IMG/VR virus record: IMGVR_UViG_3300026176_000228
Span: 1 to 64,000 of that record
From: a virus
Taxonomy: Duplodnaviria; Caudoviricetes
Reading direction: 5' to 3' (one strand)
Length of the DNA: 64,000 nt
Position numbers and translations under genes: made by a program. Below are positions 38,517 through 51,576 of the stretch, one piece after another (positions within the stretch are counted from its first letter, which is position 1; every line of letters starts with the position of its first letter). The notes beneath the pieces are model-generated. The model was not told the origin of the DNA. It saw only the letters and a list, made by a program, of their open reading frames with translations, and ran no database searches.

Positions 38517-38709
38517 TGTCACTATGAGATTCCTGTTCCATGGTGGCCGCGAGCCAGCCATTATTGAGTACTTGAATCAGTTCATAGGTAAAGAGTCGGG
38601 GAATATTGACACCTGCAACTTCAAACGGTGGTACATCTAAGGACCAAGTTTCGAGAAAATGCAAGTGTTGTGCATTGACTTCTGCGGCGCGCGCGAGGGC
38701 ATCAGGCAT
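38491..38709 (-). CDS. Hypothetical protein
   Basis: aaggag RBS; lies between the two transferases. Confidence 0.5.
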   Translation of the reverse strand: MPDALARAAEVNAQHLHFLETWSLDVPPFEVAGVNIPRLFTYELIQVLNNGWLAATMEQESHSDNATTEDSL

Positions 38710-40373
38710 TGGTAGGCTCCTTGGGCAACCAGTTGACGAAATGTAGCATAGGCAGTCTGCCGCGTTGAATCCGCACATCTTTGGCGATTTGCTGGTAAAC
38801 TTTTTCGTAAGCAGGCAATTGGTTGATTGCCAGTAGACTGCGATAGTAAGGCACGCGCGCGGTCGCGGTTTCTTGTTCCTGAATCAAATTACGGATCACT
38901 CGCGCCATGGTATCGTACCAGGCTTTGTTGTCATTGGGAATCGCGTAGCCTAGATGCTCTAAGTCGCGATAAGGTTCGCCCTGCGTGCCAATCCACGGTA
39001 CACCTGCCAAGCCGCATTCCAGAGCTTTAATCCAACTTCTGTGCTGGTCGTAGATACCGCAGAGAGGCGCGAGGCCAATATCAAAGGTCTTGACAACTGT
39101 CGGCCAAAGCGCAGGTTCTACACCAGGTTGGAGCAGTTTATTGTCGCGCGGCACCGGCAGCATGTCATAGATACGCGGGTCATTGCCGCAGAGCATAAAC
39201 ACAACCTGTGGAAACTTCTTCGCAATGTCATACGCGGCTTCACGAATTTCCGTACCCCACCAAGAGTCATAGTGCGAGACACTGCCACCCCAACCGATAA
39301 CTACGCGGTCAGTCAATTTGAGTTTAGCTTTTTGTTCCGCACGCGTAGGCATGACTTCCGGCCAGAAAGTATGGTCCGCGTAGTTAGGCAGGTAGTAACC
39401 TTGGACTGCGTAGCTCCAGTCTTGCAACAGCAGACGATTGGGCGCGGTCAAACCATCGCTCTTGCGCAGGCCGCGTTCGAGAATGTCTAAAGGTGCCGGA
39501 TCAAGGTCGTGCTTGTTCTCAATCCAGAACGCGTGCGCGGGATTACTCCAGGGTAAGATATGGTAGGCATCGTCTAAGTCAATCGAGACAGTCTTGCCTA
39601 GACCCTGGAAGTATTCAATCGCGTCAATGACTTTCTCGTTGATGACGTTACGCTGCACGCGTACGTGGTCCGCTTGCATGATCCAGTCTTGGATGACCGG
39701 ATTGATGTAATCCGTGAAACCAGAGACGTGGATTAATTTGGCAGACCAGTCTTTGAACGCGGGATCGTGTTCCGCGCGATAATTGATGGCATTCGCAGGC
39801 GTGAGATCACGCCACTGGCTCACATAATCTGGTCTTCCGACACAGTGTAGGACTATCTCATATTCCTGATAAATTCAGGAACCGGGGCGCTGATGAGGTC
39901 TTATTGTTGGGACTCAACCTCTAAGTCTCTGAACCTTCCGTGATACCTTAGCCCATCACGGCTTGGCTGCGGATTACCCGATAATGTTGCCAACATCTCT
40001 TGGGCTTCCCGATTAGATTGGCTACCCTGGCAATCTAACTTTCAATTCACCCCGTTTTTCAATGCTAGTTACCTAGCAAAGCTGCCACCCAGACAGTTCC
40101 ATTCAGTTTGGCTCGGAAATTAATTTTTGTTACATCTACCTAAGATAGATGGTCAAGTCATTTCTGCTTGACTCTGCATCTTTACTTATACATGCAGCCC
40201 GGACTTTGCCTTCATCCCGTAGGATGCGCCCCATCAAGTCTCTACACCTTCCATCTACTGATGGCTTGGCTCGACGTTGCCCACTCTTGGGGTGTTCATC
40301 GAATTTGAGGCGTTCACTGACTTAGTTACCTAAGTTTCGGACTAACATCCGCGTAGATAAAAACTATTTTCAA
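38702..40373 (-). CDS. GT4-like glycosyltransferase, 3 exons: 40373-40347, 40113-40093, 39820-38702 (388 aa, MKIVFIYAD-SQTEWNC-SQWRDL...)
   Basis: RBS aaagga plus TTG; in-frame after removing two group I introns; DLDDAY, IGWGGS.SH, DIGLAPL, RSWIKALE. Confidence 0.85.
39821..40092 (-). ncRNA. Group I intron 2 of glycosyltransferase (272 nt, ORF-less)
   Basis: 5' exon ends in U (tgt) with P1 ctgtc/ggcag U.G pair; core ggttcagagactt ... gagatagtcc (P7); terminal G. Confidence 0.88.
40114..40346 (-). ncRNA. Group I intron 1 of glycosyltransferase (233 nt, ORF-less)
   Basis: P1 cggat/gtccg with U.G pair; gtgtagagactt ... ggcaaagtcc (P7); gcagaaatgac P9 region; terminal G. Confidence 0.88.
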
Positions 40374-40565: not shown

Positions 40566-41150
40566 CTAATCTGTTTCATTGCTGGTAGTATTGTTGCTAG
40601 TGGGTGTCAGTGCGCCAGAAGTCGCAAACATCCCGCGTGCAAAGCGTGGCGCAATACGGTCGCTATCGGTATCGTAGGTGTCTTTAGAAGCCTCTGAAAT
40701 ACCACCTACAAATAATGTACCGCGACTGGTGCTGCGCGTGACGCCCATCGTGGTTAGGTCTAATGCGGTAAATTGACCGAGTTGCTTCCAGAAGTAGTCT
40801 AGCAGCACTTGCCCGCGCGTGCGTTCACCAGGCGTCAGGGTGATGTTGATACGCGTGAGTTCACTCATGCCTGCCGCGTAAAGCATGTTGAGATTACGCA
40901 GCCAGTCACGCGCCGCGGTGCCTTCCGCGACCGGTACATCATAACCCTTACTGCTTAGAGTGCTTTCGATAATACCACAGCCTGAAGATAAATAGCTGTT
41001 GACATTAGCCAGGGTAGGCGAAGTGGATGTGCCGAAACCCGTCGCGGGGCCAAGTAAATTGCGGCACATCCCTGCGATATCGGAAGCCGCGGCGTAGGCT
41101 TCCCCAGGACTGACAAAGGCTGAACCAGTGGTTGAAAAGGTATTAGTCAT
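40566..41150 (-). CDS. Head-tail adaptor (Mu gp36/SPP1 gp15-like)
   Basis: AYAAASD...IESTLSSKGYDVPV; position in the morphogenesis module. Confidence 0.7.
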   Translation of the reverse strand: MTNTFSTTGSAFVSPGEAYAAASDIAGMCRNLLGPATGFGTSTSPTLANVNSYLSSGCGIIESTLSSKGYDVPVAEGTAARDWLRNLNMLYAAGMSELTRINITLTPGERTRGQVLLDYFWKQLGQFTALDLTTMGVTRSTSRGTLFVGGISEASKDTYDTDSDRIAPRFARGMFATSGALTPTSNNTTSNETD

Positions 41151-49339: not shown

Positions 49340-51156
49340 TTAAACTGCCGAGAAGATCACACTTCCCGCGTCGCTGGCTGTGATTTTTTCCACCACTGAA
49401 TGACTGGCCTCAATCTTGTCCGTGTATTCCTCTTCCCTGCGGAAGCGGCGCACCTGACGACCATTCCATTCGAGCAGGTAGCCTGCCGCGGGCGTCAGCA
49501 GCGCGGGCGCGGATGGGACATAGCCCAGCCACATACCGTCACCCCAGATATACTGCGGGCTACCGGTTTGGCCTTCCAGCGCCGGGTCAAACAGCGACAT
49601 GCCGATCAGAAACTTCTCGAAGCCGAACCACTCGCCAAAGTCACTGGTCATGACGCGCGCGTTCGGGCGAGTGTATTTTACGCGGTCCAGCAGATCGGGA
49701 TGCTGGCGCAGATGCCGCCACACGTCCCAACTAATGACCGCCACATTGGGCATGCGCCCGATAGTCGAGACGACGCCGTTGATCGCATCTTCGATGTCAC
49801 CGTAGGGGTCAGATGTGTCGCTGGACCACTGGGTCGTGGGTGAAGCCGCGTAAGCCCACAGCGCAGAGCCACCCGTGGTTAGGTCAGCAATCCGTTTTTC
49901 CTGTGCGCGCAGGAGTTGGTCCATGACGAATTCAACGGCTTCCGCGTCAGGTCGCAGCGGACTGTCTGCGTTTTGTCGAACTTCCACTTTTGTTACTACT
50001 TACTTGCGTAAGCGGGTAGATCATTTCTGTCTACCTCTACGGGTTCACTTCCCCGTAGGTCGGAGCACATCATCATCCCAGTAGGATGTTGGCTCTATGC
50101 TCTCTACACATTTCAATTCGCATTTGTACTTTGCTAATGCGTATGATATAATGGCATTAGAAAGGTGGTTTTATGGATTCTAATACATACAAGAAACTTT
50201 GGAAGGCTAAGCGCATCGCTGAAGGTCTATGTTATCGCTGCGGTAAACCTCGCACTGACGACCGTAAAATTTGCGCTGCTTGTAACAAGAAGTCTAACCG
50301 CAGGGCTGCTGCTTGGCGAGAACGGGTTTTGATTGAACGTCGCTGTACTAGTTGTGGTGAACCATTAGCAGAGAATGAAACTCGACTCACTTGTTCGACC
50401 TGTGCCGCTAAAAACTCTAAGGCTACCCGTGAAAAGCAGAAACAAGCAATCGCTAATGGCCTGTGTGAAGCATGTCAGAAAAACCCTATTGGCTCTCGCT
50501 CTTCTGTTTGTTGTGATGCGTGTTATGAAAAACGCTTGGTATCACATCGTAAGATTCATAGTAGAATCAACTTTGGCGGTTTACGTGAAGCCGCCCTAGA
50601 GCGAGATAACCATGTCTGCCGCGCTTGTGGGTCAAGCACTAAACTTGAAGTTCATCACCTAGATGGCAATCGTCAGCATAACGAGTTATCTAATTTCATA
50701 ACCCTTTGTCATAATTGCCATGTGCTTTTGACCCGTATGATCGAAGCGCCTAATCTTCCGTTTCTGTATGAACTTGTAAAGGTGCAAATGCGAATTGTTT
50801 AGCTCGGTATTGGCATCTCAGCTTCCACCGAATTAGGCCAATTTTCACCGTCACATTGCTATGGCGGGGGACAAAAGTTTATCCGGAACTAATTTTGAGA
50901 TTGCCCACGTTGGGGTGTAGTAACTGGCTGTCGTTAGATCGTAATCTGCCTCAGCCGACCGCGCACCCGGTGCCCGCTTTTGCACGTCAATGCGTTGCCA
51001 AGCCTGCCGGGGAAATTCCCAGATGTAGTCCGTCTGCTTCTGGACTGGCACGCGCGGAAAGATTTGATCGCCAATGTAAAGTTGATTCTTGTACGCCAGG
51101 CTGAGCGAGGTCAGCGCGGCGTCAAGATGGACATCTCGCACAGAGGGTAGAGCCAT
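49340..51156 (-). CDS. Major capsid protein, 2 exons: 51156-50881 and 49984-49340 (306 aa, ...KLVPD|EVRQNADSP...)
   Basis: VHLDAALTSLSLAYKN, IFPRVPVQKQ, LRQHP, IWGD, PAAGY; in-frame after intron removal. Confidence 0.92.
49985..50880 (-). mobile_element. Group I intron (896 nt) in major capsid gene, carrying an antisense HNH ORF
   Basis: P1 ggataaa/tttgtcc with U.G pair; P7 gagca/tgctc; P10 gaagtt/aacttt; terminal G at 49985. Confidence 0.92.
50173..50802 (+). CDS. Intron-encoded HNH endonuclease with tandem Cys4 Zn-ribbon repeats
   Basis: ALERDNHVCRACG...LEVHHLDG...NFITLCHNCH; own TATAAT and aaaggtgg RBS. Confidence 0.9.
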   Translation: MDSNTYKKLWKAKRIAEGLCYRCGKPRTDDRKICAACNKKSNRRAAAWRERVLIERRCTSCGEPLAENETRLTCSTCAAKNSKATREKQKQAIANGLCEACQKNPIGSRSSVCCDACYEKRLVSHRKIHSRINFGGLREAALERDNHVCRACGSSTKLEVHHLDGNRQHNELSNFITLCHNCHVLLTRMIEAPNLPFLYELVKVQMRIV

Positions 51157-51171
51157 CGTATTATACTCCTA

Positions 51172-51576
51172 TCAATCCGCCCACTTCTGGGGGCCGGTGA
51201 GAAAGATCGTCGCGTTCATGCCACAACCACTCGCGATGGATTCCTGCGCGATGCCCAAGCGGGTCGCGGACGCCGCAGGATTGAGCGCGCCACAAGCGCG
51301 GCCATCCGAAGCGGTCTTGACCCACTGACCGAATACCAGCGGCGAGGCTGCGGATTCGCAGTTGACTTCCACCTTGGTGAAGCCGAACACGCGCACGGTC
51401 GCCATTTCCCCAGCCTTGGGATCATTCTGCAAGACACCTAGTGGTGAACCTGCGACGACATTGGATAGCGAGACTTCGCCAGCTACCGAACCAGCCTTGA
51501 CGAAGTGGTACTGCGAAGCGGAGAGATCAATGGCCGCGATGTAGGTGTGATCAATGCCCCAATATTGGACTGCCAT
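51172..51576 (-). CDS. Capsid cement/decoration protein (DUF2190-like)
   Basis: DLSASQYHFVK, LGVLQNDPKAGE; between scaffold and capsid genes. Confidence 0.8.
   Translation of the reverse strand: MAVQYWGIDHTYIAAIDLSASQYHFVKAGSVAGEVSLSNVVAGSPLGVLQNDPKAGEMATVRVFGFTKVEVNCESAASPLVFGQWVKTASDGRACGALNPAASATRLGIAQESIASGCGMNATIFLTGPQKWAD

Follow-up and report, generated by a model that had tools for sequence, protein, structure and literature searches.

Positions 1 to 64,000 of IMG/VR record IMGVR_UViG_3300026176_000228 (hereafter, the window) come from an uncultured tailed phage (Duplodnaviria; Caudoviricetes) of at least 105 kb, whose record comprises 104,755 bases and is 69% complete. On its minus strand lies a gene for a predicted glycosyltransferase. 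We find it very probable that the first 16 codons of this gene are interrupted by two group I introns without open reading frames (ORFs), independently inserted 21 nucleotides (nt) apart, which self-splice to join three exons (E1-E2-E3). Three independent lines of sequence evidence support the two-intron reading: covariance-model matches, uninterrupted homologues, and relatives carrying a single intron. From these we infer that both introns are actually spliced. The layout of the gene is as follows.

40386-40380, minus strand: Shine-Dalgarno-like GAAAGGA, 6 nt before the start codon, as read from the sequence
40373-40347, minus strand: exon 1, 27 nt, from the TTG start at 40373; nine codons (MKIVFIYAD), last base U 40347
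40346-40114, minus strand: intron 1, 233 nt, ORF-less group I, U at -1, terminal G at 40114
40113-40093, minus strand: exon 2, micro-exon of 21 nt, AGCCAAACTGAATGGAACTGT (SQTEWNC), last base U 40093
40092-39821, minus strand: intron 2, 272 nt, ORF-less group I, U at -1, terminal G at 39821
39820-38702, minus strand: exon 3, 372 codons plus stop, beginning AGCCAGTGG... (SQWRDL...), encoding a predicted GT-B fold, GT4-like glycosyltransferase

All five segments from exon 1 to exon 3 lie at the exact coordinates that an original prediction, made from the letters of the window, had given them. Reading the sequence likewise bore out its statements that both downstream exons start with AGCCA and that the length of exon 2 is a multiple of three. 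Boundaries ending in G 40114 and G 39821 are the only ones that restore the conserved reading frame, and the relatives L245 and L029 (L numbers denote loci of the gene family, P numbers its proteins) have ATG where the window has its TTG start. Because no ORFs other than ones of 31-58 amino acids (aa) occur inside the introns, both are rightly described as ORF-less. Each contains an in-frame UAA in the loop of paired region P2, where the upstream frame stops after 7-8 codons; a review describes the same for many phage group I introns (PMC3984707). The ORF reported by gene callers is instead 38702-39823, which has 373 codons and a GTG start at 39823 (MSQWRDL...).

To identify the introns, the record was searched with the Rfam group I model RF00028 (Intron_gpI) using E-value thresholds. 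The model matched 40366..40174 for intron 1 (43.7 bits, E 1.2e-9) and 40071..39829 for intron 2 (38 bits, E 6.3e-8), in both cases over its full span (positions 1-253), and these were its only two matches in all 104,755 bases. Copies at the same sites in relatives were also recognized, with 56.3 bits for intron 1 in L029/L032 and, for intron 2, 72 bits in L043, 45 in L245, and 40 in L243, where the copy is cut by the contig end. Both predicted intervals thus match by E-value, and orthologous same-site copies exceed the Rfam gathering score of 50 bits (72 and 56.3).

Secondary structures were then drawn by hand, and pairs were counted on small MAFFT alignments of same-site orthologues comprising the window, L029, and L032 for intron 1 and the window and L245 for intron 2; L043 and L243 were left out of the latter count because they were misaligned in P8 and P9 of a four-sequence alignment. 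The drawn helices are listed below.

40351-40347/40342-40338, minus strand: intron 1 P1, CGGAU with GUCCG, U.G at the splice site
40335-40320, minus strand: intron 1 P2
40312-40307/40232-40227, minus strand: intron 1 P3
40302-40297/40276-40271, minus strand: intron 1 P4
40240-40236/40206-40202, minus strand: intron 1 P7, GACUU/AAGUC, one compensatory U-A to A-U change
40226-40213, minus strand: intron 1 P8
40197-40174, 40172-40152, and 40151-40133, minus strand: intron 1 P9, P9.1, and P9.2
40096-40093/40085-40082, minus strand: intron 2 P1, CUGU with GCAG
40077-40064, minus strand: intron 2 P2
40054-40050/39887-39883, minus strand: intron 2 P3
40038-40013, minus strand: intron 2 extra hairpin
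40011-40008/39973-39970 and 39961-39938, minus strand: intron 2 P4 and P6a
39927-39924/39854-39851, minus strand: intron 2 P7, GACU/AGUC, invariant in the alignment
39921-39895, minus strand: intron 2 P7.1, an additional hairpin of P7.1 type between P7 and P3′
39881-39863 and 39845-39829, minus strand: intron 2 P8 and P9

For intron 1, 97.2% of the alignment cells assigned to helices were paired, compared with 30-41% when the partners were slid, and nine pairs had both partners changed, among them one pair of the P7 pseudoknot, one of P4, and four of P9.1. For intron 2, the corresponding values were 97.7% and 30-48%, with seven pairs changed on both sides (in P2, the extra hairpin, P7.1, and P9). 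The P1 pairs of both introns are kept in relatives, and the sequence together with the drawn structures showed that each intron has the U.G-containing P1, the P7 core, and the terminal G that had been predicted.

The two structures differ in type: in intron 1, P7 is followed directly by P3′, while in intron 2 a hairpin stands between them. Introns 1 and 2 are therefore two unrelated elements and not duplicates of each other. Positions 40217-40151 of intron 1 (P8-P9.1) are 82-84% identical over 66 nt to introns of mycobacteriophage LittleE and of the Wanda/BAKA type, and its J8/7-P7-P9 pattern is common to 92 viral contigs. Intron 2 gave no BLASTN match at E 1e-5 among the fetched loci, and its relatives were recovered only through a 16-nt core pattern in the P3 region, which is common to 43 viral contigs; by this pattern, it belongs to another widespread phage family, one with a P7.1-like hairpin.

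Several observations weigh against self-splicing of both introns. The window copies score below the gathering score: with gathering thresholds, Rfam reported no match anywhere in the window, and the introns came up only when E-value thresholds were used. The covariation is drawn from two to three sequences per intron. P1 of intron 1 has only 5 base pairs (bp) closed by a 4-nt loop, and by eye intron 1 has no convincing P10 and intron 2 has one of about 3 bp. Many group I introns can do without P10. Finally, no splice joint was present in Logan contigs of four runs (X3, X9, X14, and X16), a result that is uninformative on splicing either way; contigs from RNA-labelled libraries cross exon 2 unspliced, at a depth of 2-3. 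In RNA-labelled "mosquito metagenome" libraries, two contigs of low depth are exact matches to the window, confined to 39967-40272 (the 3′ part of intron 1, exon 2, and the 5′ part of intron 2), and we draw no inference from them on habitat.

The junctions themselves were read from homologues. The protein encoded by exon 3 has 481 homologues, and 71 distinct loci of the family could be sorted by their 5′ architecture into 40 uninterrupted loci, five with an intron, and 26 with a short insertion. Relatives whose 5′ end is complete have an unbroken MK[IV]xx[IV]YADSxxEWNCS[QE]WRxLxPxDAxN (for example, P0044, P0075, and P0012). Among 30 full-length homologues, A, D, E, W, N, and S of this motif do not vary, while C, W, and R reach at least 90% conservation. 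Joining the three window exons (MKIVFIYAD-SQTEWNC-SQWRDL) reproduces the motif residue for residue. The contiguous YAD...EWNC...WR that the original prediction expected of intron-less homologues was accordingly found in the uninterrupted relatives.

Relatives with one intron complete the picture. In L245, whose protein is 86% identical, MKIVFIYADSSHEWNC is uninterrupted (YADSSHEWNC), so that E1 and E2 are joined, and only intron 2 is present, inserted at the same phosphodiester bond, between TGT and AGCCA as in the window. Intron 2 is also found in L243/L244 and L043/L008. Conversely, L029/L032 contain intron 1 alone. It follows GCGGAT, as in the window, and opens with the same GTTAGTCCG, and the E2 and E3 of these loci are uninterrupted (EWNCSSWR). 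Because some relatives carry only intron 1 and others only intron 2, each junction is seen closed in natural DNA.

The same comparison bears on the idea that the 550 nt upstream of exon 3 are an untranslated leader holding decayed intron relics and that the enzyme starts at GTG 39823 (MSQWRDL...). Gene callers do give exactly this shortened N-terminus for the window cluster and for the relatives P0001, P0002, P0007, and P0038, and the Rfam scores of the window are below the gathering cut-off. However, the 16 residues that would be missing are among the most conserved of the family (A, D, E, W, and N being invariant) and form strand beta-1 and the first loop; the window encodes them in frame, with U|...G| boundaries exactly at their edges; and the intron helices keep their pairing through compensatory changes. 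Moreover, the locus of P0002, L243, has an intron directly upstream, which marks its short gene call as an artefact. We regard an untranslated leader as scarcely credible. The beginning of database entries P0001, P0002, P0003, P0007, P0038, and P0116 is SQWR, SEWR, or an internal Met, since gene calls break off at introns or short gaps; the call for P0003 opens at Met 49 even though its exon is intact from SQWR.

To judge what exons 1 and 2 contribute, we turned to the fold of the enzyme. The exon 3 product is assigned to the PHROG 7162 glycosyltransferase family. Pfam gave no match for exon 3 of the window at E < 0.1, PF13692 being recorded for some homologues, and a tblastn search of exon 3 against the 50,697 phage records of INPHARED gave no match, so no cultured relative is available. 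An AlphaFold model of the uninterrupted homologue P0075 (predicted local distance difference test score 91.4) shows two Rossmann-like domains in a GT-B arrangement, and Foldseek matched this model to MshA, PimA, GlgM, and BshA at E 1e-14 to 1e-12. On the strength of this model, the host gene is predicted to encode a GT-B fold, GT4-like retaining glycosyltransferase. Residues 2-7 of the model form strand beta-1 and residues 8-17 the loop before helix 1, which places exon 1 in strand beta-1 of the N-terminal Rossmann-like domain and exon 2 in the beta1-alpha1 loop. As residues 2-7 are a core strand, a product started at GTG 39823 would be without it. Expression of the glycosyltransferase would thus depend on two splicing events, as originally proposed, since exons 1 and 2 hold beta-1 and the conserved loop.

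Between the window and L245, the nonsynonymous substitution rate (dN) is 0.11 and the synonymous rate (dS) about 2.4. The resulting dN/dS of about 0.05 shows that the glycosyltransferase gene is under strong purifying selection, and for the phage to benefit, the interruptions would therefore have to be removed. This constraint also speaks to the suggestion that one or both introns are splicing-dead and that the gene is a recent pseudogene in the window phage. Such a view could draw on the lack of direct splicing evidence, the weak P1 and P10, and the sub-threshold Rfam scores. Yet, in addition to the low dN/dS, the 372 codons of exon 3 are intact, the helices are fully paired in the window copies, contigs identical to the window over exon 2 and adjoining parts of both introns come from four runs belonging to two studies, and at least part of the 751-nt stretch is present in runs from ten studies. 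We consider a pseudogene very improbable.

Under the two-intron reading, the primary transcript would give no active enzyme: translation started at TTG would meet a UAA seven codons into intron 1, and the product started at GTG 39823 would be without strand beta-1 and the conserved EWNC loop. Each ribozyme would therefore have to excise itself, presumably by two transesterifications involving the U.G end of P1, guanosine attack, and the terminal G. Ligation of E1-E2-E3 would yield an mRNA beginning MKIVFIYADSQTEWNCSQWRDL, and the protein made from it would contain the peptide MKIVFIYADSQTEWNC....

Splicing might also proceed mainly or only as one unit, from the 5′ site of intron 1 to the 3′ site of intron 2, giving MKIVFIYAD-SQWRDL as a regulated or main product. 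The original prediction had noted that skipping of exon 2 would stay in frame, which holds as a matter of arithmetic (21 nt), and both 3′ exons begin with AGCCA. Phage group I introns are known to skip exons in Twort orf142 and in phage SIOphi, the latter with skipping in more than 47% of transcripts (PMC11878797). On the other hand, the codons of exon 2 are kept in every relative, whether it has one intron or none, so that a functional product must contain them, and each intron occurs alone elsewhere and is thus a self-sufficient unit. Because exon 2 supplies the residues E, W, N, and C, each of them invariant or conserved to at least 90%, the skipped product would lack the near-invariant EWNC and would probably be inactive. 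We judge splicing as one unit improbable and retain the joining of all three exons as the preferred reading.

The expectation that a glycosyltransferase would be an unusual host was upheld in part. Our literature search found no paper on a group I intron in a phage glycosyltransferase. Such introns, which the original prediction described as usual in DNA metabolism genes, have already been reported from phage genes for capsid, tail, lysin, terminase, and psbA (PMC3706429, PMC11878797).

The 26 relatives with a short insertion have 4-21 nt, and no intron, placed within the YADSxxEWNCSQWR coding block. They are the following loci.

L007, L009, L012, L014, L019, L023, L024, L033-L036, L040, L042, L044, and L047-L049: short insertion in the coding block
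L059, L061, L062, L067, L070, L073, L075, L077, and L084: short insertion in the coding block

Twenty-four insertions were analyzed. Seventeen of them change the reading frame, and in 15 a stop codon opens the insertion, immediately behind the last conserved codon. The tally, in which L084 was mis-solved as a trivial 1-nt case, prefers stop-first among up to four equal solutions and so inflates the binomial P. In nine of the 24, the codon preceding the gap agrees in its first two letters with the final codon of the gap. One 11-nt insertion is common to L033, L034, and L035, in which 2-3.6% of sites differ, dN/dS of 0.006-0.024 shows continued strong purifying selection, and the codons upstream of the insertion differ only synonymously; a 7-nt insertion is common to L073 and L075 at 66% protein identity.

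Six other explanations of these insertions were considered and rejected. Assembly artefacts are contradicted by the recurrence of the same insertions in independent metagenomes, and random decay by ORFs that are otherwise intact, with dN/dS of 0.006-0.024. Stop-codon reassignment does not account for the use of all three stop codons or for the frame shifts in 17 of 24 cases, a single +1 or -1 frameshift does not account for the several insertions that contain in-frame stops, and re-initiation would need a start codon that is mostly missing. Core-less mini-introns borrowing a neighbouring ribozyme would need a ribozyme, and there is none in those loci. The most economical reading is that ribosomes may pass over the gaps, which makes these loci candidates for translational bypassing.

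In most uninterrupted loci, the glycosyltransferase gene directly follows a conserved neighbour of 170-200 aa (40566-41150 in the window). In L245, L033, L034, L014, L044, L061, L073, and L085, an antisense gene of 240 aa with LAGLIDADG and HNH_repeat domains stands between the two, and L080 has a short partial match to it at the contig end. In L029/L032 and L067, the same position is taken by a protein of 370-380 aa with weak matches to HNH_repeat, endonuclease-I-like, and DUF790 profiles, which may represent a second homing nuclease family.

L245:1262-1984, minus strand: free-standing LAGLIDADG + HNH_repeat gene, candidate homing endonuclease
L032:289-1428 and L067:1039-2151, minus strand: second nuclease-like gene, adjoining alleles with intron 1 or a 9-nt gap

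The 5′ block is interrupted in 10 of 12 endonuclease-adjacent loci and in 11 of 43 others (Fisher p = 0.0005, with close relatives not collapsed). Where the LAGLIDADG gene was present, the target block nearly always held an intron or a short gap as well. Other genes occur at this spot as well: S-adenosylmethionine-dependent methyltransferase genes lie between the conserved neighbour and the glycosyltransferase at L036:1744-2343, L047:1771-2361, and L042:987-1685, and the intergenic spot thus accepts varied cargo. A TnpB gene (OrfB_IS605 with a Cas12f-like TNB domain; L046:1024-2262, on the contig of L012) lies directly upstream of a 10-nt-gap allele, and L009 has an insert of 10 nt nearly identical to that of the L012 allele at a different site of the block.

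Sequence identity around the introns was also uneven. Between the window and L245, it is 90% in intron 2 but 76% over the whole of exon 3 and 70% in the upstream gene, with one stretch of exon 3 standing out.

Window 39820-39701 vs L245:2360-2479: first 120 nt of exon 3, 92-93% identity

This gradient resembles a co-conversion tract left by intron homing. Intron 1 of the window is 81% identical to that of L029, although the host proteins are 56% identical.

These patterns suggest that the block of about 45 nt is a homing target and that the introns may act as immunity elements, as in collaborative homing (PMC3984707). The introns would persist by breaking the recognition sites of homing endonucleases, and the window phage would have two immunity introns in the absence of the nucleases. 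Extended to the family, the first 45 or so nt of the gene would be contested by at least two homing endonuclease families and neutralized in three interchangeable ways (intron 1, intron 2, or an untranslated gap of 4-21 nt that mostly opens with a stop codon and that ribosomes would need to hop), the window allele being doubly immunized, with both ribozymes kept and the nucleases lost. We put this scheme forward tentatively and give it slightly less than an even chance. Two points tell against the homing and immunity reading: neither endonuclease has a homologue in the 104.7-kb record of the window (69% complete), so that immunity is read from relatives only, and the identity near intron 2 could partly reflect constraint on the N-terminus of the protein.

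Among the closest known systems is the tail tube gene orf142 of phage Twort; as Landthaler and Shub reportedly described in 1999, it has three group I introns in one gene and undergoes exon skipping. It shares with the window several ORF-less group I introns close together in a gene of the late or structural module and the possibility of skipping an internal exon, whereas in the window two structurally distinct introns, with splicing predicted, lie within the opening 16 codons of a glycosyltransferase gene. Phage genes with a small internal exon between two group I introns have the same arrangement, but they serve DNA metabolism or packaging, and their introns average about 800 nt, many with endonuclease genes, in contrast to the ORF-less 233 and 272 nt in the window.

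Cluster J mycobacteriophages have an intron with an antisense endonuclease gene in the LittleE capsid gene and an ORF-less 265-bp intron in the BAKA/Optimus tail gene, and splicing in this cluster was shown by reverse transcription PCR (PMC3706429). The likeness lies in small ORF-less introns in virion-module genes and in the 66-nt similarity of intron 1; the host gene and the phage lineage are different. The capsid gene of the window also looks interrupted, as in LittleE: ORF 49340-49987 (minus strand) covers just positions 95-312 of the 315 in a major head protein profile, and an HNH endonuclease ORF (50173-50802, plus strand) lies antisense just upstream of it. Rfam gave no group I match in this region (49600-51300).

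As in collaborative homing, the ORF-less intron of L245 adjoins a free-standing LAGLIDADG gene, both at one conserved target, while the window differs in having introns without an endonuclease gene. For the short gaps, the coding gap of T4 gene 60 lies within a MobA endonuclease element (bioRxiv 10.1101/2022.08.31.505936), and short UUA-triggered bypassing has been proposed in Streptomyces phages (PMC10732093). The gaps of the relatives resemble these cases in that a non-coding insertion, opening with a stop or rare codon, occupies an endonuclease target while its gene remains under selection. They differ from T4 gene 60 in length (4-21 nt vs 50 nt) and in having matching take-off and landing codons in only nine of 24; the window has no such gap.

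The finding in the window, clustered ORF-less group I introns in a phage late gene, is confirmed as real and correctly interpreted, and it is not unprecedented. Its glycosyltransferase host is of a kind for which the searched papers gave no example, and its micro-exon is very short. A candidate virion-glycosylation enzyme in the structural module would rely on two ribozymes 21 nt apart, which offers a compact setting in which to study the folding of adjacent group I introns, the order of their splicing, and the frequency with which a micro-exon is skipped. For annotation, callers that start at SQWR drop the first beta-strand and the most conserved loop, and the same error affects many entries of the family. 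The pattern across the gene family (introns, endonucleases, and gaps) is a more interesting lead than the window introns themselves. Relatives with one intron, none, an adjacent endonuclease, or a short gap form a natural series that lends itself to asking how selfish nucleases drive the spread of introns and, possibly, translational bypassing. If the scheme is true, repair of the same lesion at the RNA level, by splicing, and at the translation level, by bypassing, would exist side by side in one gene family.

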